Shown here piece after piece: positions 4,256-40,689 of a stretch of 59,902 nt of DNA. The position numbers were made by a program, and so were the translations under genes. Numbering within the stretch: position 1 is the first letter of the stretch; the number at the start of each line of letters is the position of its first letter. Below the pieces are notes generated by a model. It saw nothing but the letters and a program-made list of their open reading frames with translations, ran no database searches and was not told where the DNA came from. The stretch comes from Bacteroidota bacterium (GTDB lineage: Bacteria; Bacteroidota; Ignavibacteria; UBA10030; UBA8401), in the NCBI GenBank assembly GCA_035500675.1, contig DATJXA010000132.1:1-59902 (forward strand), in the 5' to 3' direction.

Positions 4256-4330
4256 GGTGGCCATAGTTCAGTTGGTTAGAATGCCAGGTTGTGGCCCTGG
4301 AGGTCGTGGGTTCAAGTCCCACTGGCCACC
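4256..4330 (+). tRNA. tRNA-His (GUG)
   Basis: G-1 plus acceptor stem GTGGCCA/TGGCCAC, discriminator C. Anticodon arm CCAGG-ttGTGgc-CCTGG, T-loop GGTTCAAGTCC. CCA is not encoded. Confidence 0.96.
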
Positions 4331-4443: not shown

Positions 4444-4516
4444 GTCCCCATCGTCTAGAGGCCTAGGACCGGAGCTTTTCAAGCTTCTAACACGAGTTCG
4501 AATCTCGTTGGGGACA
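4444..4516 (+). tRNA. tRNA-Glu (UUC)
   Basis: Acceptor stem GTCCCCA/TGGGGAC, anticodon arm GGAGC-ttTTCaa-GCTTC, T-loop GTTCGAATC. CCA is not encoded. Confidence 0.95.
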
Positions 4517-28807: not shown

Positions 28808-30937
28808 CTACTTTCCTTTCATCAGTTCGATGTATTCCGGTTCATTCCGGATCGGGTCGAGATCGGGGTCACGCTTGATCCATTCATAAAATCCATACCC
28901 CGACCCGATTGCTTTCTTCAACGCCTGGAGCGCGAGCGCCTTGTCTCCAACATTTGCGTAGAAACATGCTGCATTGTAGAACATCAGCGGATCGTTCGGG
29001 CTCAATTCGATGGCTCGTGCCGCTTTGGCTTTCGCCTCGTCGAGATGGTCAGTTCGCACCAAGACAAGGGCGTAGAAGATATGAGCCCGCGCGTCGTCGG
29101 GATGCTGCAACAGGTAACGCGGGAACATTTCCATGGAAGCCGTGAGCCATTTCTCAACGTTTTCCTTTTCTTCCAGGCGGCTGTAACACAGCACGATGTC
29201 GCCATAGGCTGTATAAAAATCGGCGTTGAGTTCGACAACCTTCCGGAACATCTCTGCCGCTTCCCGCACGCGGTCGGTGGTGACATACGTTCGGCCGAGT
29301 ATCCAATAGGCGGTATGATTGCTCGGGTTCAGCTCGATCGCTTTCTGACTCGATTCCAGTGCTTCGCCGTGCGACTTCTTATAAAGATAGACGAGACCCA
29401 ACGCGGAATACGCCTCGGACAATGAGGGGTCGTACATCAACGCTTTGAGGCCTGCTTCCAGCGCTTTGTCCAGCAGGGTATCGTTCCTTTCGAACTGTTG
29501 GTAGAGGTGCGCGTACGCCTCGCTTAACCCCGCATACGCGTCGGCATATCGCACGTCATACTCGATTGCTTTTTGAAAAAGTTCGATCGCGATCTGCACG
29601 CCGTTTTTTGTGAACCGATACATCGAGTCTCGTGCGCGCAAATTGCAATCGAATGCCTGAGCGCTCAACGTCGGACGCTTTGTGAGCACCACCTGCTCTT
29701 TCGGGGTGAGTTTGACCATCAGGGCATCGACGATCTGTTTTGAAACTTTTTCCTGAATATCAAAAACGTCCTCGAGCTTACCTTTGTACGTTTCCGCCCA
29801 GAGCTGCGCGTCTGCGTCGACATCGACGAGCTCGACGGCGATGCGGAGGTTGTCCTGAAATTTTCTGACGCTTCCCGCAAGGATGTAGCGCGTGTCGAGC
29901 TCTCGTCCGATCGTCTTGACGTCCTTGGTCGTCGTTTTGTACTGCATCGATGTCGTCCGCGGCACGACCCGAATATCTTTGAGCCTAGACAAGTTGATGA
30001 TCAGCTCTTCCGTAAGGCCGTCGCTGAAATAGTCGCTTTCTTTATCGGGACTGATATTGCCGAACGGGAGTACAGCGATCGCTTTTGTCTGGGGTTGAGT
30101 CTGGGCGCTTTCGATCGCCTTGAGTGTGTCCTGTAAAGAGTGGAGCACTTCATCGGCAGTTTGATAGCGCTGCAACCGATCCTTCGCCAGCATCTTTTTG
30201 ATGAGAGAGTCTACTTGATGGGGAATTTTTCTGTCCATCAGGCTTGGAACGGGAGGATCTTCGTTCACGATCAGATAGAGCAATCCGGCTTCATGTTCCG
30301 ATTTAAATGGAAGGTCGGCGGTGAGTATTTCATAGAGCACGACACCCAGAGACCAAATATCGGACCGCTGATCGGCGGCTTCGCCCTGAGCCTGTTCGGG
30401 CGACATGTACGACAACGTTCCGAGCGATGTGCCGGTTCTTGTCAAACCGGAACTGCTTTTAAGTTTCGCGATGCCGAAATCCATGATCTTGAGCTTTCCG
30501 TCGTTCGTCAGCATGACGTTTTCCGGCTTGATATCCCGATGGACGATATTTTTTCCATGGGCCGCCTTGAGCCCTTCAGCGATCTGCGATGCCCACGCGA
30601 TCGCCTGCTGCACCGGAACGCCCGTCCCTGATTTCAAATTTGTCATGTATCTCTTCAGAGTCGTCCCTTCGAGATACTCCATCACGAGGAACATTCCGTC
30701 GTCGTGCTCATCGATCTCATACACGTTAAGGATGTTCGGATGATTAAGGGATGCAGTCGCCTTCGCCTCTTGAAGGAATCGCGCTTTACTGTCTGCAGAC
30801 GCTGAAAGGTGAGAAGGAAGGATCTTGATCGCGACCATACGGTCGAGCTTCAGGTCCTGGGCCTTATAGACAACGCCCATACCGCCTTCGCCGAGCTTTT
30901 CGAGAATTTTATAGTGTGAGATTGTTGAACCGATCAT
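28808..30937 (-). CDS. Hanks-type Ser/Thr protein kinase (STK1) with TolB-N-like domain and TPRs
   Basis: LGEGGMGVVY, VAIK, HRDIKPEN, DFG; AIAVLPFGN...YFSDGLTEELI; TPRs ending YNAAC...DPDLDPIR. Confidence 0.95.
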   Translation of the reverse strand: MIGSTISHYKILEKLGEGGMGVVYKAQDLKLDRMVAIKILPSHLSASADSKARFLQEAKATASLNHPNILNVYEIDEHDDGMFLVMEYLEGTTLKRYMTNLKSGTGVPVQQAIAWASQIAEGLKAAHGKNIVHRDIKPENVMLTNDGKLKIMDFGIAKLKSSSGLTRTGTSLGTLSYMSPEQAQGEAADQRSDIWSLGVVLYEILTADLPFKSEHEAGLLYLIVNEDPPVPSLMDRKIPHQVDSLIKKMLAKDRLQRYQTADEVLHSLQDTLKAIESAQTQPQTKAIAVLPFGNISPDKESDYFSDGLTEELIINLSRLKDIRVVPRTTSMQYKTTTKDVKTIGRELDTRYILAGSVRKFQDNLRIAVELVDVDADAQLWAETYKGKLEDVFDIQEKVSKQIVDALMVKLTPKEQVVLTKRPTLSAQAFDCNLRARDSMYRFTKNGVQIAIELFQKAIEYDVRYADAYAGLSEAYAHLYQQFERNDTLLDKALEAGLKALMYDPSLSEAYSALGLVYLYKKSHGEALESSQKAIELNPSNHTAYWILGRTYVTTDRVREAAEMFRKVVELNADFYTAYGDIVLCYSRLEEKENVEKWLTASMEMFPRYLLQHPDDARAHIFYALVLVRTDHLDEAKAKAARAIELSPNDPLMFYNAACFYANVGDKALALQALKKAIGSGYGFYEWIKRDPDLDPIRNEPEYIELMKGK

Positions 30938-30974: not shown

Positions 30975-31629
30975 TCGACCCCAAAGGGGTCGAATTGTAC
31001 AGGACCGGGGCAACGCCCCGACTCATATTGGAAACAAGCCTCTATGAACCCTGAAAGGGTGAAACAATTATGTCAATCCCAGATATAACGTTCATCAAAT
31101 TTGATCTTGTATGCATTCAAAAATGCACGATACTCATCTTGAAAAATTTTCTTACGATGATGCTCTTCTTGGTTTGCAATATATTTTTTTACACGCTCAA
31201 CCTCAGATTGACCTACAGAAAATGCGCCATACCCGTTCTGCCATGCGAATTTGGACAAGAGCCCCCCTTTCGACTTGATCCATTTCGATGACCCGCGTTT
31301 GATTTCGCCTACTACCTTTGCGATAGAGAGATTGCGCGACAATGAAGAAAGAATATGCACATGATCTGCAACTCCTCCAACAATCAAAACGGGACAATCG
31401 AGATTTTTACACGTGCCGCCGAGATAGGCGTGTAATTCTTTGCGTACAGTTTTGTCAACGAGAAATGGGAACCTGTGCTTCGTCGAAAAAACAATGTGTA
31501 TCAGAACGTTCGCAAGTGATTGAGACATATCCCCCCCCCATATAACCCTTTCAGGGTTACTGATTAGTACGGTTTGTTGTGTGCCGAGGACGATGTCCTC
31601 GGTTGAATTATGCTTCCCCCTTGGGGAAG
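30975..31629. mobile_element. Y1 transposase flanked by inverted three-hairpin modules (REPtron-like unit)
   Basis: Module 30975-31060 (+) and module 31543-31629 (-) enclose tnpA, with ACCCT-GAA-AGGGT hairpins nearest the gene on both sides. Confidence 0.7.
31073..31528 (-). CDS. tnpA: IS200/IS605-superfamily Y1 (HUH) transposase, RAYT-like
   Basis: IHIVFSTKHR, HUH motif DHVHIL, SSKWI, WQNGYGAFSV, catalytic Tyr in KYIANQEEHH. No adjacent tnpB. Confidence 0.9.
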   Translation of the reverse strand: MSQSLANVLIHIVFSTKHRFPFLVDKTVRKELHAYLGGTCKNLDCPVLIVGGVADHVHILSSLSRNLSIAKVVGEIKRGSSKWIKSKGGLLSKFAWQNGYGAFSVGQSEVERVKKYIANQEEHHRKKIFQDEYRAFLNAYKIKFDERYIWD

Positions 31630-34528: not shown

Positions 34529-36886
34529 TTATTTCACCAAACCGGATTTTTTCGTCAATGCAATGAACCTCGGTTCGGTTCGGATGTCATCCCACGCGTC
34601 GTCAATGAGGAGGTTCCCGAACCAGATGCTGTGGTCGTTAAAATCTTTCTCGAGCATTTCCAGGGCTTTTTCTTTATCCCCAAGCCCTGCATATATTCTG
34701 GCGATGTTGTATGCCGAACCGGTTCCTTCGTTGTACCTGCGCTCGTTCTCTTTCAGAAGCTTGAGGGCTTTGTCCCTCATGTTGTGCTTTGCATAGAAGT
34801 ATGCGAGAGAGGATATACATTCGCTCGAACGTCCCGACAACTCCACGGCTTTTTCGAGCTGTGCCTGGGCATCGGAATATTTTTTTAAGCGATTATTTGC
34901 GATCCCTTGCCATTCATACCCGACCGCAAACGACGGGTCGAGCTCGACCGATTTTGTAAAATAGCCAAGCGCGTCTTCATACTGTCCGCGAAGAAGCGGG
35001 ATGAGGCCTAAGTTAATTTCGATGATGGGGGAAAACGGGTCGAGCTCGTGCGCCTTTTGGATCATTGCCGAGGCCTCTTCTGTACGCCACGTCCTAACAA
35101 GCATGATGTTGTACCAGTGATACGCCGTCCCGTACCGCGGGTTCAGCGAAATGGCTTGTTTGAATTCCCGCTCCGCATCATCATATTTCCATTCTTGAAC
35201 ATAGCAGAGTCCGATTGTGGCGTGAGCTTCTGCGAGCGAATTATCGAGATCGAGCGCGCGACGGGCAGATGCCAATGCCATGGGCACCGTGACACTTGTC
35301 GGGATTCCAGAATATTGCGATTGGAGGACGTAACAGTCTGCCAGCCCCGAATAGGCGAGCGCATAGGTCGAATCCAGCACAATTGCTTGATTCAAATATC
35401 CGATCGCGCGCACTATCGAAGCGGCGGTGCGTTTGTTCCAGTAATACCGTCCTTGCAGATATAACTGATATGCCTGAGTGTTAACAGTGGATGGCTGGGT
35501 AATTTTTTCCCGAGTCTCCGTCGAGAGCCCGATGCCAAGCTTCGATGACACGTCGTCAGTGATTTGCTGCTGCAACGAAAGAAGGTCCGTCATCGAGGAA
35601 TGATAAAGATTGCCCCACAATTCCGATTGCCGGTTGACGTCGATCAGATCGACCTGAACGTCCAGGACCTGGCCACGATGAGTGATCGTTCCCGACAGAA
35701 CCGCCCCGACATTTAATTTCGACCCGATGGCCTGAATGTCCATCTCTTTTCCCTTGAACCGGAACACGGTGCTGCGTGGAATGACCCTCAACGATGATAT
35801 TTTCGTGAGATTGTTGATGATACTTTCGGTGAGGCCGTCCGAAAGATATTCCTGTTCCTGCGACGCGCCGGCATTTTCAAACGGAAGCACCGCGAGTGAA
35901 TCGATCCCCTTCGCGCGGCCGCTGTAAAAATAGGTCGCTAGTGCTATCAACACCACTGCGAGGCCCACGGAGCCGAAGATGAAAAAATTTTTCTTCGGCA
36001 TAGACTTTTTAACAACGGGATGATCTTGTTCCACCGGAGGAGCGGCCGCATCGACCATCGATGGACGCATGACTCTCGACGTTTTCTTTCGCTCGCGCCG
36101 CAATTCGCTCACCATGTCGGCGACCGATTGATAACGATCCTCCGGATTTTTTTCGAGCGCCCGTGCGATAATGCGCTCAAGTTCCGGAGATGCTCCCGGT
36201 TGAACCTTCGTTAACGGCGTCGGTTCCTCGTTGACGATGGAATAGACCATTGCTGCTTCATGTTCGCCGCGAAAAGGTAGCTTGCCCGTCAACATCTCGA
36301 AGAACAAGACGCCAAAGGAAAAAATGTCGCTCCTGTAATCGACTTCTCCTGCCTGGATTTGTTCCGGCGCCATGTAGCCGAGCGTTCCAACCGTGCTGGA
36401 GGTGCGTGTGAGCTTCAACGATCCTTTCAGCTTTGCCAACCCGAAATCCATCACCTTGACCTGGCCCTTCGAGGTCAGCATGATATTGTCGGCTTTGATA
36501 TCCCTGTGGACGATCCCTTTGGAATGAGCTTCTTGCAGCGCCTCGCCGATCTGCGCCGCTATAACGATCGCATCGTCGGATTTTGCAAAGGGAATCTTCT
36601 CGCCGAGAGTTCCGCCGTCGATGTATTCCATTGCGATGAAGAGCTGTCCCTCGTGTTCCTCGACTCCGTAGATCGTGCAGATATTGGGATGATTGAGTCC
36701 CGCTGCGGCTTGCGCTTCCTGAAGAAAACGTGCCTTTGCAGTCTCATCCTTCGTCACCCTGTCGGGAAGAAATTTAAGAGCCACGTTGCGGTTCAGCGTC
36801 GTATCGTGGGCCTTGTAGACAACGCCCATTCCTCCTTCGCCGAGCTTTTCAAGAATTTTATAGTGAGAAATAGTTTGTCCTATCAC
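34529..36886 (-). CDS. Hanks-type Ser/Thr protein kinase (STK2) with TM, TolB-N-like domain and TPRs
   Basis: GTG start; LGEGGMG, VALK, HRDIKADN, DFG; TM segment; SLAVLPFEN...YLSDGLTESII; TPRs. Confidence 0.95.
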   Translation of the reverse strand: MIGQTISHYKILEKLGEGGMGVVYKAHDTTLNRNVALKFLPDRVTKDETAKARFLQEAQAAAGLNHPNICTIYGVEEHEGQLFIAMEYIDGGTLGEKIPFAKSDDAIVIAAQIGEALQEAHSKGIVHRDIKADNIMLTSKGQVKVMDFGLAKLKGSLKLTRTSSTVGTLGYMAPEQIQAGEVDYRSDIFSFGVLFFEMLTGKLPFRGEHEAAMVYSIVNEEPTPLTKVQPGASPELERIIARALEKNPEDRYQSVADMVSELRRERKKTSRVMRPSMVDAAAPPVEQDHPVVKKSMPKKNFFIFGSVGLAVVLIALATYFYSGRAKGIDSLAVLPFENAGASQEQEYLSDGLTESIINNLTKISSLRVIPRSTVFRFKGKEMDIQAIGSKLNVGAVLSGTITHRGQVLDVQVDLIDVNRQSELWGNLYHSSMTDLLSLQQQITDDVSSKLGIGLSTETREKITQPSTVNTQAYQLYLQGRYYWNKRTAASIVRAIGYLNQAIVLDSTYALAYSGLADCYVLQSQYSGIPTSVTVPMALASARRALDLDNSLAEAHATIGLCYVQEWKYDDAEREFKQAISLNPRYGTAYHWYNIMLVRTWRTEEASAMIQKAHELDPFSPIIEINLGLIPLLRGQYEDALGYFTKSVELDPSFAVGYEWQGIANNRLKKYSDAQAQLEKAVELSGRSSECISSLAYFYAKHNMRDKALKLLKENERRYNEGTGSAYNIARIYAGLGDKEKALEMLEKDFNDHSIWFGNLLIDDAWDDIRTEPRFIALTKKSGLVK

Positions 36887-37023
36887 AATATTTTTCTCCC
36901 CCTCCCGCCAAAGAACGGCGGGATGCTCAAATTTTCAATCCCGCAAAAAAGCTGCGGGAGAAAATTTGGCACTTCGCCGAGCTTCTCGAGGATTTTATAG
37001 TGCGATATTGTCTGTCCGATCAT
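36835..37023 (-). repeat. 52-nt direct repeat (36972-37023 vs 36835-36886) flanking an 85-nt double-hairpin insert
   Basis: 43/52 identical; 8 synonymous changes plus ATG/GTG. Hairpins at 36928-36968 and 36903-36923. Confidence 0.9.
36883..37023 (-). CDS. Unannotated 46-aa leader ORF duplicating the STK2 N-terminus
   Basis: MIGQTISHYKILEKLGE-VPNFLPQLFCGIENLSIPPFFGGRGRKIL*. TGA (36885-36883) overlaps the STK2 GTG. An alternative ATG lies at 37026. Confidence 0.6.
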   Translation of the reverse strand: MIGQTISHYKILEKLGEVPNFLPQLFCGIENLSIPPFFGGRGRKIL

Positions 37024-37034
37024 CATCGCTTCAA

Positions 37035-39719
37035 TTATTTATTTTCCACCAGATTCTGCCAGTTAAAAATGAGCGACCCGTTTTTCAGAGATTGAGTGTT
37101 CAATGTCCGCGTCACCAAAATTTGTTTTCCGTCTCTCGAGATATCCATGACGTTTGTCTGAAATCCGGCGTCGATTTTAAACAGCTGTTTCGTTTGGCCG
37201 ACATTGATCTCATTTCCCGAGATGGTGACAGGGACTGAAAATACTTGCTGGTTATTGAGCGTGTACATAATCTCCCTGCCGTTATTGAGCCATCGGGGCT
37301 GCTCGCCACCGTTCGTCGATACCTGCCACTTGCTCGGTGAGCCGTCGGTCGGCCTGATGTAGACTTCGTTTTTGCCCGTTTCATCCGATTCATACGCGAA
37401 CCATTTTCCATCGGGCGAAAATGTCGCGAGCCATTCGTCAAACTCGGAGGTCAATAACGGAGTGTATTTCTTTTCTCTTATGTCGTACATCCCGACATCC
37501 CATTTTTGCACACCTTGCGTGTTGATGGACAGAAGCAATTTATTCCCATCATGTGAGACGTCGGTGACATAGGAACTGGTGTTCCCGGCATAGATCAAGT
37601 GCTCATCGCCTGTACCGTTGCTGTTTTTCTCGTAGATGCTGAAAACCCCGCTGGCGTTCGAGCTGAAATACACCTTGCTGTCGTCCGGCGACCATGAAGG
37701 GACGAGCTCGGTGCCTTTATCAAATGTAAGACGCGTGTCGGAGTTACGCTGAGTGTCATGGATCCATAAATCGGTATTCTTTGCCGATTCGTCCAATGCA
37801 TCGGTCGCAACGTATTTTCCGTCGGTGGAAAACGCCGCCCACGTTGTCGCAACTTTTGATTGCATCGTATGTTGGATGACGCCGTTCGCACCGTAAATGA
37901 CCATTTCATTATCGGATTTTGCCGTGCCGAGATACGCCAGTCGACCATCCCTCGAAAATGAAAAAGTCCCTTTGCTTCGCACCCTTGCGTATAAAACGCT
38001 TTCCAAAATCGGGATCGGCTCGCCTTTCAATTCCAAGGAACCGTCGTCGAATCGTTGGGCAAGCAAAGAATTTTGTTTATAATAGAGCACCCATCCGCGA
38101 TTGTAAACGATATTACTCGATGCGTGGACGACAATTTTATTCTTCGTATCGCCGAGAGAAGCTACACGAATATGGTCTGCGTCTTCCTCGAGCGACGGTT
38201 TGCTTGTCTGGACAGTGTAAAAGAAGTGGTCCCCGTCGGGCAAAAAATATGGCCAGCGATGATTTACTTCATACTCGGTCGAGTCGAGCCGAGTAAGTTG
38301 CTTCGCTGTTCCTCCTGCCGAAGAGACTTGATACAACGGCCCACTGCTGCTCGGCGCGAAGATAATCACCCCATCCTTATTCCACGTCCCGCCTCTTCCG
38401 TCCGTTGCGTCACAAACGGTGAATGACGGTCCCCCTTTTGCATCGATCTTTTTGAGCTTTCCGTCAGCAAAGTACGCGATCATTCTGCTGTCATACGACC
38501 AAAACGGATAGGACGCATTTTCAGTGCCCGATAAAAGCAAAGGCGTCGGTGCATCCAGTGGCCGCACCCAGAGGTGATCTTTCCCGAGAGAGTCGACAGC
38601 GACGAACGCAATCATGCTGCCGTCGGGGGAAATTTCCAGATGGCCTCCGACAGTTGAATTGAAAATATTTCCTTTAGGGGCTTCGAACGAGAGTTGAATC
38701 AACTCAGGCCCTTTCTTAATAAATAGAAAGTACCATCCTACGACAGCGATCAGCAACACCGACAAAGCAATCGAGGCAGCCATCCAAACATTGAAAGGTA
38801 ATGCCTTCTTCTGCGGAAGCGTTTCGTATTCCGCAGTTTGAGGAGCGATCCTCGTCCCGGATGAAATCTGGCTCTTGCGCACGGCAAGAATTCTGCTTGC
38901 GGTCTGGCGGCTCGATTCACGTTTAAGTTTTCGAAGATCCTTGACGATCTCCTTTGCGGATTGATACCGCTCGTCCGGGTCTTTTGCGAGACATTCAAGG
39001 AGAATTGCATCGAGGTCGGTGGGCACGTCTGGCTTGAGGATCGAGATCGGTTCGGCATCGACATTGACGATCTCGTAAATGATGGCGGTCTCATGAACGC
39101 CTTTGAACGGCGATTGCCCCGATATCAATTCATACAACAGAACGCCGAAGGAAAAGATATCGGTGCGGTGATCGACGTTGAACCCCTGCACCTGCTCGGG
39201 CGACATATACCCCACTGTTCCGACGGTATTGCCTTCCCGTGTCAGACGCGAAACGCCCTGAAGTTTCGCCAGGCCGAAATCCATGATCTGCACGAGACCG
39301 TCCTTCCGCAGCATCACATTTTCCGGCTTGATGTCCCGATGGACGATCCCCTTTTCATGGGCGGCAGCTAATCCCTCCGCAACCTGGATCCCGATGTCGA
39401 TCGATTGTTTGAAAGAAATATTGTTCTTCCTGTCGCGCAGCGTTTCACCGTCGATGAATTCCATTGCGATGAACAACTGGTCTTCATATTCCGCGACATC
39501 ATAGATCGTGCAGATATTGGGATGATTCAGAGTAGCGGCGGCTTTCGCCTCCTGCATAAATCGCTGGCGGTCGGACTCAGTGGAAGAGACGCTCTTCGTC
39601 AAAAATTTAAGTGCAACAAACCTGTCGAGTTTGGTGTCCCTGGCTTTATAGACGATGCCCATGCCACCTTCGCCAAGTTGCTCGAGAATTTCATACTGAA
39701 GAATCGTTTTACCAATCAT
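37035..39719 (-). CDS. Hanks-type Ser/Thr protein kinase (STK3) with TM and TolB/PD40 beta-propeller
   Basis: LGEGGMG, VALK, HRDIKPEN, DFG; TM; ISPDG, FWSYD, WSPDD, FSPDG repeats. Confidence 0.95.
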   Translation of the reverse strand: MIGKTILQYEILEQLGEGGMGIVYKARDTKLDRFVALKFLTKSVSSTESDRQRFMQEAKAAATLNHPNICTIYDVAEYEDQLFIAMEFIDGETLRDRKNNISFKQSIDIGIQVAEGLAAAHEKGIVHRDIKPENVMLRKDGLVQIMDFGLAKLQGVSRLTREGNTVGTVGYMSPEQVQGFNVDHRTDIFSFGVLLYELISGQSPFKGVHETAIIYEIVNVDAEPISILKPDVPTDLDAILLECLAKDPDERYQSAKEIVKDLRKLKRESSRQTASRILAVRKSQISSGTRIAPQTAEYETLPQKKALPFNVWMAASIALSVLLIAVVGWYFLFIKKGPELIQLSFEAPKGNIFNSTVGGHLEISPDGSMIAFVAVDSLGKDHLWVRPLDAPTPLLLSGTENASYPFWSYDSRMIAYFADGKLKKIDAKGGPSFTVCDATDGRGGTWNKDGVIIFAPSSSGPLYQVSSAGGTAKQLTRLDSTEYEVNHRWPYFLPDGDHFFYTVQTSKPSLEEDADHIRVASLGDTKNKIVVHASSNIVYNRGWVLYYKQNSLLAQRFDDGSLELKGEPIPILESVLYARVRSKGTFSFSRDGRLAYLGTAKSDNEMVIYGANGVIQHTMQSKVATTWAAFSTDGKYVATDALDESAKNTDLWIHDTQRNSDTRLTFDKGTELVPSWSPDDSKVYFSSNASGVFSIYEKNSNGTGDEHLIYAGNTSSYVTDVSHDGNKLLLSINTQGVQKWDVGMYDIREKKYTPLLTSEFDEWLATFSPDGKWFAYESDETGKNEVYIRPTDGSPSKWQVSTNGGEQPRWLNNGREIMYTLNNQQVFSVPVTISGNEINVGQTKQLFKIDAGFQTNVMDISRDGKQILVTRTLNTQSLKNGSLIFNWQNLVENK

Positions 39720-39862
39720 CGCATAATTTCCTTTCCCCTCCCGCCGAAAAACGGCGGGATTCTCAAAATCACTGCCACTCGCTGAGTAGGGCTCGTGGGT
39801 GATTTTGGAACTTCGCCCAGTTGCTCGAGAATTTCATACTGAAGAATTGTTTTACCGATCAC
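39668..39862 (-). repeat. 52-nt direct repeat (39811-39862 vs 39668-39719) flanking a 91-nt double-hairpin insert
   Basis: 48/52 identical; 3 synonymous changes plus GTG/ATG. Hairpins at 39764-39807 and 39739-39759. Confidence 0.9.
39716..39862 (-). CDS. Unannotated 48-aa leader ORF duplicating the STK3 N-terminus
   Basis: AAGGAG RBS then GTG; MIGKTILQYEILEQLGE-VPKSPTSPTQRVAVILRIPPFFGGRGKEIMR*. TGA overlaps the STK3 ATG (ATGA). Confidence 0.65.
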   Translation of the reverse strand: MIGKTILQYEILEQLGEVPKSPTSPTQRVAVILRIPPFFGGRGKEIMR

Positions 39863-39945
39863 AAGTCGCTCCTTTCAAACTGATAACTGCCACCGCACTC
39901 TACCGAACCCTCGATGTTAAACAAGAGAAGATAGGAGAAATCGTT

Positions 39946-40689
39946 TCAATGAGTGAACCATTCTGCCGTAAGACAGCGGTACACTTTTGTCGTCAGATCC
40001 TCGCTTGTCGCCGATGTTGTCGTCGCGCTCGCGTGAGAAACCCGCCAGCGGACCGAAGCCGGTAAAATTTTATAGATCGATTCCAACAGCTCGCCGATCG
40101 AATGGATACCGGGCGACTGAAGTTCAACGGTCTCGTCCCAGAATGAAATGACGTGGAACTTGTGCTGTTGACGGAGAAGGATCAGGTCGATGAACCCTTT
40201 ATGAGCTTTATATTTTGGATGGATCTCAGACGCGAAAAGAGCTTCGAATGTATTGACTTGATCTTCCTGGACAGTGAGCTCAAGGATCTGAACGGCAAAC
40301 GGTTTCGCTTTGAGCTTGCTGATGTTCTCCGAGCCGGCGACGGATCCGTCAAATCGTTCGATTGTCGGCTCTATTTGGATCGGAGTGTATTCGAGAGACA
40401 GGTCTTCCGTCAACTCCAGTTTCCATTCGTTTGAATCGGCAAAATATGGCCGGAGCGAATCGACCAATTTAGTATACAAGCCGCTCTTTTCATAGTCTTC
40501 CGAATCTTTGCGGGATTTCCAGATTGTGAGGGAAATACATTCCTGCGGTTTGTCGGTATTTTGGAGCAGCGAGGCAAATGCGCATCCCTTTGTGGAGCGA
40601 AGAGCAGAGAGCACCGACTGCGCATAGGCCTCGGCATTCTTCTCCGATTCCTCGGCGCGTATGATGTGAGTGACAAGCCTTAGAAACAT
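39946..40689 (-). CDS. Tandem ABM (dimeric alpha/beta-barrel) domain protein
   Basis: ALRSTKGCAFASLLQ...ISLTIWKSRKDSEDYE; second repeat HKGFIDLILL...VISFWD. Confidence 0.75.
   Translation of the reverse strand: MFLRLVTHIIRAEESEKNAEAYAQSVLSALRSTKGCAFASLLQNTDKPQECISLTIWKSRKDSEDYEKSGLYTKLVDSLRPYFADSNEWKLELTEDLSLEYTPIQIEPTIERFDGSVAGSENISKLKAKPFAVQILELTVQEDQVNTFEALFASEIHPKYKAHKGFIDLILLRQQHKFHVISFWDETVELQSPGIHSIGELLESIYKILPASVRWRVSHASATTTSATSEDLTTKVYRCLTAEWFTH

Follow-up and report, generated by a model that had tools for sequence, protein, structure and literature searches.

Why would two neighboring genes for Hanks-type serine/threonine kinases each be preceded by a duplicate of their own 5' end? 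The question is raised by contig DATJXA010000132.1 of the GenBank assembly GCA_035500675.1, which comes from a Bacteroidota bacterium (Ignavibacteria; UBA10030; UBA8401) and of which we analyzed positions 1 to 59,902 of the forward strand (59,902 nucleotides (nt), hereafter the window). In front of each of the two genes, STK3 and STK2, lies a module of three parts: a "stump," that is, a start codon with the first kinase codons (usually, 17 codons and one nucleotide); a structured RNA of about 75 nt, which consists of the hairpins P1 and P2; and a spacer of about 20 nt with a motif resembling a Shine-Dalgarno (SD) site. A short leader open reading frame (ORF) of 46-48 codons begins with the stump, stays open through P1 and P2 and terminates at the start codon of the kinase. 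The feature is real and conserved, and we give roughly even odds (about 0.5) to the reading, based on the sequences, that each module is a translated relay leader acting by termination-reinitiation through structured RNA. The components in the window are the following (copy A is the stump, copy B the first 52 nt of the kinase coding sequence (CDS) itself):

37035..39719 (-): STK3, Hanks-type kinase, Pkinase domain (residues 9-260) and PD40 beta-propeller repeats; copy B at 39668-39719
39716..39862 (-): STK3 leader ORF, 48 codons, initiated at GTG; its TGA and the STK3 ATG share the tetranucleotide ATGA
39811..39862 (-): STK3 stump (copy A), duplicate of the initial 52 nt of a kinase CDS, VIGKTILQYEILEQLGE plus G; 48 of 52 nt agree with copy B
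39760..39810 (-): STK3 hairpin P1, type A; from the base, a lower helix of 12 bp in which a single A bulges out, a bulge of 2 nt on the 3' side, 4 bp, tandem G.A, 2 bp and a loop of 8 nt
39739..39759 (-): STK3 hairpin P2, TCCCGCC/GGCGGGA, 7 bp
39720..39738 (-): STK3 purine-rich spacer, SD-like GGGGAAAGGA ahead of the kinase ATG
39869..39875 (-): AAAGGAG, SD-like, 6 nt ahead of the GTG that opens the STK3 stump, where ribosomes probably enter
34529..36886 (-): STK2, Hanks-type kinase, Pkinase domain (residues 9-253) and TPR repeats; copy B at 36835-36886
36883..37026 (-): STK2 leader ORF, 47 codons from the first ATG, TGA overlapping the STK2 GTG (GTGA); begins 8 nt past the STK3 stop
36972..37023 (-): STK2 stump (copy A), MIGQTISHYKILEKLGE plus G, equal to the consensus of the family; 43 of 52 nt agree with copy B
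36924..36971 (-): STK2 hairpin P1, type B, base helix as in type A, apical part swapped for CCCGCAGC-T6-GCGGG
36903..36923 (-): STK2 hairpin P2
36887..36902 (-): STK2 purine-rich spacer, GGGGGAG ahead of the kinase GTG
28808..30937 (-): STK1, paralogous kinase used as comparator, with no leader module and no match to the covariance model described below

An offset of 143 nt separates the two STK3 copies, which have 4 mismatches in 52 nt, namely, the start codon and three synonymous third positions; for STK2 (A, 37023-36972; B, 36886-36835), the offset is 137 nt and there are 9 mismatches in 52 nt, the start codon and eight synonymous positions. STK2 and STK3 differ from each other at 5 of the 17 N-terminal residues, and each leader is identical to its own kinase at 17/17. 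Both copies A switch after GGCGAAG into GT(G/T)CCAAA...TTTGAG(C/A)A (P1), continue into TCCCGCCG-N5-(C/T)GGCGGGA (P2) and end in a GGGG-rich spacer. The switch point lies after Glu17 of L-G16-E-G-G-M-G, within the Gly-rich loop; in both proteins, the Pfam Pkinase domain begins at residue 9. Apart from this domain boundary, the layout had been noticed by a model given the sequence (hereafter the original prediction): the four-part architecture with offsets of 137 and 143 nt, the shared switch after GGCGAAG, the stop-start overlaps, the 17/17 matches despite five differing residues, the 11 non-start differences, all synonymous (3 + 8), and the location of the switch in the loop of both kinases hold in every detail. 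Across the 59.9-kb window, the P2 pattern is found at the two leader sites only, with 0 expected. Just upstream of the STK3 stump, at 39874-39900 (-), there is a segment, GCGGTGGCAGTTATCAGTTTGA, similar to the P1 3' arm GCGAGTGGCAGTGATTTTGA, which may be a remnant of a further, decayed module; the similarity is weak, with 33 of 1000 shuffles scoring as high. The 5' region of STK1 (30975-31020 (-)) contains two short GC hairpins, CGGGGCGTTGCCCCG and GACCCCTTTGGGGTC, that are unrelated to the cassette.

An assembly artefact or a chance repeat is the most trivial explanation of such a layout, given that short-read graphs break at repeated N-terminal segments. We consider its probability negligible: the copies differ at 4 and 9 positions, the same layout recurs in dozens of independent assemblies, and a single unitig of an independent metagenome run covers 36803-39697, including the whole STK2 module, without a difference, so this module is not an artefact of assembly. 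The original prediction had judged an artefact unlikely, and this stands. It had also raised the possibility of an excisable or recombinational switch, for which we found nothing: two DNA metagenome runs contain the window sequence and confirm its layout, with no deleted form seen, the runs being kept as contigs that cannot show rare variants; all joints listed trace to paralogous kinase domains.

The cassette, P1 together with P2, is a conserved structure of the sense strand, as became apparent from a multiple alignment, from RNAalifold and from a covariance model, and the shared structured cassette of the original prediction is thus a real fold. In a MAFFT alignment of 20 cassettes, 99.1% of the cells are paired and 10 of the 22 pairs have changed on both sides, a value that none of 500 column shuffles reached and that no slid register approached. 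RNAalifold independently predicts the same P1-P2 fold as a single structure and extends the base of P1 by T-A, N-N (CG 13, GC 4, UA 3) and C-G pairs, so that the hairpin starts exactly where the kinase homology ends. Among 115 distinct sequences aligned to the model, 97.9% of the cells are paired and 23 of 25 pairs covary, in an alignment that leans towards the covariance model. The base of P1 reads (G/A)TNCCAAA ... TTTGAGNAT; above the 12-bp lower helix with its single bulged A, the 2-nt bulge of the 3' strand and four further base pairs, there is an invariant CGAG/CGAG box, which we read as tandem G.A pairs, and then two covarying pairs and the 8-nt loop. The G.U pairs fall on the sense strand; the antisense strand would carry A-C mismatches. 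Pairing of the P1 loop (CGAG) with CTCG of the Leu-Gly codons was considered and dropped given that these codons vary synonymously.

P1-P2 is a well-supported RNA motif that, as far as checked, is undescribed and has no credible match in Rfam 15. At the gathering score, the only matches in the whole window are two tRNA genes (4257-4330 and 4444-4516 (+)), and in E-value mode, the best match in 36700-40000 was group-II-D1D4-5, with 16.8 bits against a gathering score of 34.5 and E = 1.7, that is, a chance match. Group II introns and ribozymes were rejected because their defining sequence features are absent, and an integron attC site was rejected because the P1 base lacks the AAC/GTT cores (RYYYAAC ... 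GTTRRRY). A literature search found no description of such kinase leaders.

Several searches converge on the distribution of the module. A profile made from the two leader peptides yielded 809 protein matches with the consensus MIGQTISHYKILEKLGEVPKSPTSVFQRVAVILRIPPFFGGSG; the best 120 of these 809 are all 29-81 residues long and come from JGI, ENA and NCBI assemblies, and the few named carriers are Ignavibacteriales, Ignavibacteriae or Bacteroidota. Orthologous leaders were recovered for the STK3 leader ORF, both among these small ORFs (including P0009) and in fetched genomic contexts. In the fetched contexts, the leaders precede kinases, often with at least two in tandem, the stop of each overlapping the next start, and kinase-leader-kinase chains are found. 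A DNA pattern composed of the P1 3' arm and P2, with no ORF information, was scanned against species-representative genomes and then against metagenome contigs. The former produced 31 stretches, of which 18 are loci in metagenome-assembled genomes (MAGs) labelled Ignavibacteria or Bacteroidota with a kinase N-terminus immediately downstream, four are Ignavibacteria loci with decayed copies or copies linked to the "X-module" (see below), and nine are chance matches in unrelated phyla; the latter added 63 stretches.

The covariance model was built from P1-P2 alone (75 positions, with neither stump nor start codon) and run on about 730 kb of Ignavibacteria/Bacteroidota contigs. It gave 140 matches, 126 of them distinct and almost all ahead of Hanks-kinase starts; the window modules score 90.6 bits (39737-39811, STK3) and 67.9 bits (36901-36972, STK2), and the type B variant of STK2 recurs in locus L001 (10222-10299). 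A recognizable stump and a downstream kinase-type start accompany 95 of the 126 distinct matches; the rest mostly have stumps of four codons or with insertions, are cut by contig ends, or are non-kinase X-module copies, and the approximately 8 that lack both stump and kinase-type start are mainly such copies. The enrichment upstream of Hanks-kinase genes for which the original prediction suggested a test is borne out as an almost exclusive association. The modules, single or in tandems of 2 to 5, are found where one kinase gene follows another in the same direction, or ahead of the first gene of an array; of 90 intact kinases that have sufficient upstream sequence, 28 have no module, 50 have one, nine have two, two have three and one has five, counts that are biased because the loci were picked for carrying a cassette. 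The P1-P2 stump module is thus widespread, and often tandem, in uncultured Ignavibacteria. In L034 (3969-4790 (+)) and L073 (6797-7353 (+)), four to five tandem modules with junctions at nt 13, 52 and 63 stand ahead of one kinase; one unit of the L034 array is read in a shifted frame.

Homologous cassettes at sites unrelated to kinases had been named in the original prediction as evidence that would count against it. Such sites were found, marginally, in one Ignavibacteria MAG lineage, and otherwise the cassette is almost exclusively kinase-linked in the contigs sampled. In this lineage, P1-P2 follows a conserved module of about 75 nt (…CTGCAGTTCCGTAACC…GGTGCAGAAGGTTCCCTTTAGGGCTACT), the X-module, at no fewer than six intergenic sites with unrelated flanks, at least two of them with a canonical intrinsic terminator behind the cassette, so P1-P2 can exist without a kinase stump. 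The copies are:

L048 1590-1790 (+): X-module copy, followed by an intrinsic terminator (GAGGCAAT..CCGG…CCGGGATTGCCTC TTTG)
L079 903-1040 (-): X-module copy, likewise followed by an intrinsic terminator
L052 3502-3640 (-): X-module copy
L021, L075, L097, L015/L062 and L049: further X-module copies

From its sequence, the X-module resembles a family of genes for small RNAs or else a MITE-type dispersed repeat; an Rfam search of three of these loci yielded no credible match. Beyond kinase leaders and the X-module, no P2-like hairpins were detected in about 700 kb of the same Ignavibacteria contigs, and a generic, genome-wide REP element is rejected for the sampled contigs because such hairpins are not scattered there.

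The stump codons are conserved at the amino acid level like real kinase N-termini. Variability at the three codon positions is 0.096/0.042/0.423 in stumps and 0.107/0.069/0.499 in true N-termini, the residue profiles are nearly equal site by site (G16, 97%; E17, 100%), and STK3-type stumps that precede unrelated kinases differ from each other almost only synonymously. Recognizable stumps precede at least 95 of the 105 cassettes that have a downstream start, and decayed stumps are rare. Hairpin insertions that preserve the frame are tolerated within stumps, at HY|KIL as well as at other sites, and the shortest stumps have only four codons, which disfavors a folded peptide; the decoy N-lobe peptide suggested in the original prediction is, accordingly, unlikely. 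The best defined insertion is a 30-nt pair of hairpins (GCGCCAAAGGCGC ATCCGCCTCTGGCGGAC, read as APKAHPPLAD) that lies in frame at HY|KIL in different loci (L001 10168-10197 and 4332-4361, L037, L046, L066/L002 10194-10223, and L007 6432-6461); it is about four times less diverged than the flanking codons, has 48-nt and 66-nt variants at the same site, and may be a site-specific hairpin module. An apparent insertion at HY|KIL of an intact kinase (L084) was rejected because that copy is frameshifted after about 50 residues. In one L001 module, stump and kinase share 51 of 52 nt on the two sides of a 30-nt insertion, which demonstrates that gene conversion exists, but such events appear too rare to account for the clean state of three quarters of the stumps.

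The stumps are not, in general, matched to the kinase that follows. Across 44 stump-kinase pairs, the identity within a pair is 13.55 of 16 residues compared to 12.95 when pairs are permuted, a difference that is significant but small, so the covariation of cassette and cognate gene proposed in the original prediction is not a general property. The excess is carried by 11 of the 44 pairs, in which 11 or more of 16 third positions agree and which look recently copied or converted; in the other 33, the stump is no closer to its own kinase than to the rest. The STK3 pair is one of the recent ones, with 13 of 16 third positions identical, and STK2 (8 of 16) owes its 17/17 match to both copies being equal to the family consensus. 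At loci that are syntenic with the window and share its upstream ABM-domain gene, a tandem pair of STK3-type stumps, IGKTILQYEIVEQLGE, stands ahead of a kinase that starts with MIGQTISHYKIIEKLGE and is 33% identical to STK3, and an STK2 ortholog (79% identical) has no leader; modules are gained and lost between orthologous loci. In L089, L095, L053 and L057, where the kinases have an LGGGGMG instead of an LGEGGMG loop, the stumps read LGGGGM too (4/4), an agreement at the level of the lineage, as would fit stumps that arose locally. Two further observations concern individual arrays. The kinase behind a 79-codon leader in L001 (7338-9975 (+)) is split between a kinase-domain ORF of 388 codons and, in the +1 frame, a PD40 part, being either a frameshifted pseudogene or a sequencing error, and its N-terminus, MIGKTVGQYTIMELVGE, is strongly unlike the leader's stump. 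Between two kinases of L002 (5130-5245 (+)), there is another palindromic repeat (CTCGTTCCCAATCTCGGATTGGGAACGA, CTCGTTCCCAAACTGAGTTTGGGAACGAG), which is unrelated to P1-P2.

The position of the joint varies as well. P1, always beginning with (G/A)TNCCAAA, is joined after nt 13 (MIGQ|), 30, 52, 63 (GGM|) or 76 (VVYK|) of the kinase CDS, and some derivatives are without P1 or without both hairpins. The idea of the original prediction that an element targets the P-loop codons finds no support on this point, with nt 52 being one joint among five. The combination of a constant end at the base of the P1 palindrome and a variable stump end suggests hairpin-directed deletions or template switches. The modules probably turn over by duplication, conversion and deletion within tandem kinase arrays.

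What is maintained is the reading frame. From the stump start to the next start, modules measure 116 to 239 nt, the spread being due to extra small hairpins and loop changes. Twenty distinct lengths, covering 84 of 95 units, are 2 mod 3, and 11 lengths (11 units) fall in the other two classes; hence, the leader ORF usually ends on the next start. In 77 of the 95 units, the ORF traverses both hairpins and stops on the TGA of ATGA or GTGA. Insertions of 24 to 99 nt remain in frame, and leaders with multiple insertions, of up to 86 codons, keep the frame. In junction classes where the stump ends in another phase, the cassette has one nucleotide less or more, which brings the total back to 2 mod 3, and the tail reads ...NFEDPPSLWRRR rather than ...RIPPFFGGSG; therefore, the end point of translation is conserved and the tail peptide is not. 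An SD-like motif is present at 98 of 108 post-cassette starts, compared to 14% of random positions. Stumps at the head of arrays have an SD-like motif in 28 of 76 cases (37%) and lie at most 30 nt from the stop of a long upstream ORF in 26 of 76 (34%). Taken together, the open frame, the length class and the SD-like spacers are the signature expected of termination-reinitiation coupling. The claim of the original prediction that the leader peptide is translated and under purifying selection finds agreement in the 84 of 95 lengths and the coding-type pattern of the stumps, both of which are evidence from sequence. A fusion by programmed -1 frameshift was rejected as incompatible with the kinase frame, which is open in 34 of 50 units and closed in 16, including STK2, and no slippery heptamer is conserved because the junction classes read P1 in different phases.

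Under the relay-leader reading, a ribosome would start at the stump, either through an SD site (STK3) or by reinitiation past an upstream stop (STK2, 8 nt after STK3), melt P1 and P2, terminate on the kinase start codon and reinitiate there with the aid of the SD-like spacer. In the window, the chain leader-STK3-leader-STK2, with its 4-nt overlap, 8-nt gap and 4-nt overlap, would thus couple four ORFs. P1-P2 would be the regulated or insulating part, which may hinder independent loading of the 30S subunit or bind a factor that gates the passage; specific recognition is hinted at by the invariant tandem G.A of CGAG/CGAG and by the sRNA-like intergenic copies. Speculatively, the X-module and the invariant CGAG box fit a trans-acting partner, and X-module transcripts could be decoys. 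The modules themselves may originate and multiply within tandem arrays of paralogous kinases through local duplication and gene conversion, and through deletions with an end point at the base of the P1 palindrome. Of the roles listed in the original prediction, translational coupling has the best fit to the sequences.

Coupling of this kind has well known counterparts. Bacterial leader ORFs work by termination-reinitiation at overlapping stop and start codons (AUGA), and in class 1 integrons, ORF-11, which runs across attI, opens a structured RNA. The kinase leaders resemble coupling upstream ORFs (uORFs) in that the stop of a short ORF overlaps the main start, an SD-like site precedes that start, structured RNA lies inside the uORF, and the frame but not the tail peptide is conserved. 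Unlike such uORFs, the kinase leader begins with the kinase's own N-terminal codons, which are under constraint at the amino acid level, and is fused at a fixed point to one conserved fold that is tandemly iterated and occurs across a paralogous family. Reviews that relate to bacterial leader-ORF coupling are PMC5972666, PMC8876359 and PMC13285730.

A number of observations weigh against the relay-leader reading. Coupling alone leaves the conservation of the 17-residue stump unexplained. The paralog STK1 and an ortholog (L001, position 1951) have no leader, and the leader is therefore dispensable. Approximately 12-19% of the modules are frameshifted or end early. A kinase that starts with Met-Ile provides the kinase-frame TGA of ATGA for free, so the signal lies in the length class and the open frame and not in the overlap. 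The spacer and the start codon that follow P2 are predicted to be unpaired, and translation of the kinase might therefore not require the leader. All carriers found are uncultured MAGs or contigs from metagenomes, and no RNA or ribosome-profiling runs containing the window sequence were found in the read archives searched.

The strongest competitor, which we consider possible but distinctly less probable than the relay leader, is non-adaptive: the stumps would be scars, with no regulatory role, left when tandem kinase paralogs recombined unequally, were duplicated in part or suffered deletions, P1, P2 and the small hairpins would be selfish palindromic modules that use short ORFs as a safe haven, and the frame would be kept only because a leader that ends elsewhere would disturb the kinase start. 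The gain and loss of modules between orthologs, the decayed and frameshifted copies, the several junction positions that all end at the base of the P1 palindrome, and the conversion or recent duplication visible in 11 of 44 pairs are all expected in this case; so are the presence of P1-P2 within a dispersed intergenic repeat of one lineage and the identical 30-nt insertion at the same stump site of different loci, about four times less diverged than its flanks. The hairpins are indeed similar to Rickettsia palindromic elements (RPEs) and REP/BIME, being small, located in frame within translated ORFs and recurrent in near-identical form (the 30-nt HY|KIL insertion, the P2-like hairpins). In contrast to those elements, the kinase-leader hairpins do not appear to be dispersed, P2-like hairpins being confined in about 700 kb to kinase leaders and one intergenic repeat family, the X-module; they show no terminal repeats or target duplications; and P1-P2 evolved by long-term compensatory change, its pairing having been kept in many genomes through many such changes, together with invariant unpaired nucleotides. 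Moreover, neutral scars would differ from real N-termini, whereas the stumps before at least 95 of 105 cassettes are conserved like them.

That conservation is explained directly, site by site (G16 97%, E17 100%), by a single reading, in which the stump serves as the real kinase N-terminus and the ribosome hops over about 140 nt, from the final codon of the stump to its counterpart in the following copy, or one unit is removed at the RNA level, with read-through and reinitiation as the fallback path. It accommodates the orphan STK3-type stumps, which are conserved despite being unlike the downstream kinase, and the start of P1 at the nucleotide after the end of homology in every junction class; the take-off and landing codons also match (GAA before P1 and again in the next copy), a trivial result of duplication. 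Similar features are known from translational bypassing in phage T4 gene 60 and the mitochondrial byps: a hairpin at the end of the coding homology, the recurrence of the same codon downstream and a conserved nascent peptide upstream. A bypassed gap, however, would not need a frame that stays open past the junction as far as the next start; in contrast to the known cases, no stop follows the putative take-off site (the next codons are GTN CCA AAN) and the downstream kinase copy has its own SD site and start, and 140 nt is far beyond known bypasses. The codon phase of the junction varies between classes, many intervening GAA/GAG codons would compete for landing, insertions would disrupt strand beta-1, some stumps have only four codons, and neither a splice-like signature nor a ribozyme match was found. 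We therefore regard recoding as improbable; at loci of the L002/L066 type, where stump and kinase N-termini differ, it would yield the peptide IGKTILQYEIVEQLGEGGMG, and, if it occurred, modules in tandem would give a single kinase a choice of N-termini and of entry points. Slighter still is the chance of an attenuator or riboswitch, with P1 and P2 as alternative or terminator structures controlled by leader translation or a ligand. A leader ORF that runs into conserved hairpins is the classical layout, as in trp, his and pheST attenuation, where a translated leader likewise precedes hairpins upstream of the gene, and the apical nucleotides of P1 are conserved. Unlike those systems, the kinase leaders have no terminator U-tract (P2 is followed by GGGG/GCGG purines and is not called by a terminator scan), no conserved alternative pairing and no runs of regulatory codons; furthermore, the tail peptide changes with the stems and the frame, the P1 apex is replaceable (type B at STK2), and no credible Rfam match exists. 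Attenuation, which the original prediction had listed among the possible roles, finds little room here.

If the relay-leader reading is correct, one post-transcriptional device is common to a whole expanded family of Hanks-type sensor kinases in uncultured Ignavibacteria, a conserved RNA embedded in a translated leader that is built from the gene family's own 5' end. This would be a natural example of chained termination-reinitiation through strong hairpins, with the puzzle of a leader peptide that is held to the sequence of the kinase N-terminus. There is also a practical consequence for gene calling in MAGs, where such ORFs of 40-80 codons are currently labelled "hypothetical protein." More broadly, tandem arrays of paralogs and small hairpin modules appear to reshape the 5' ends of genes in this kinase family.

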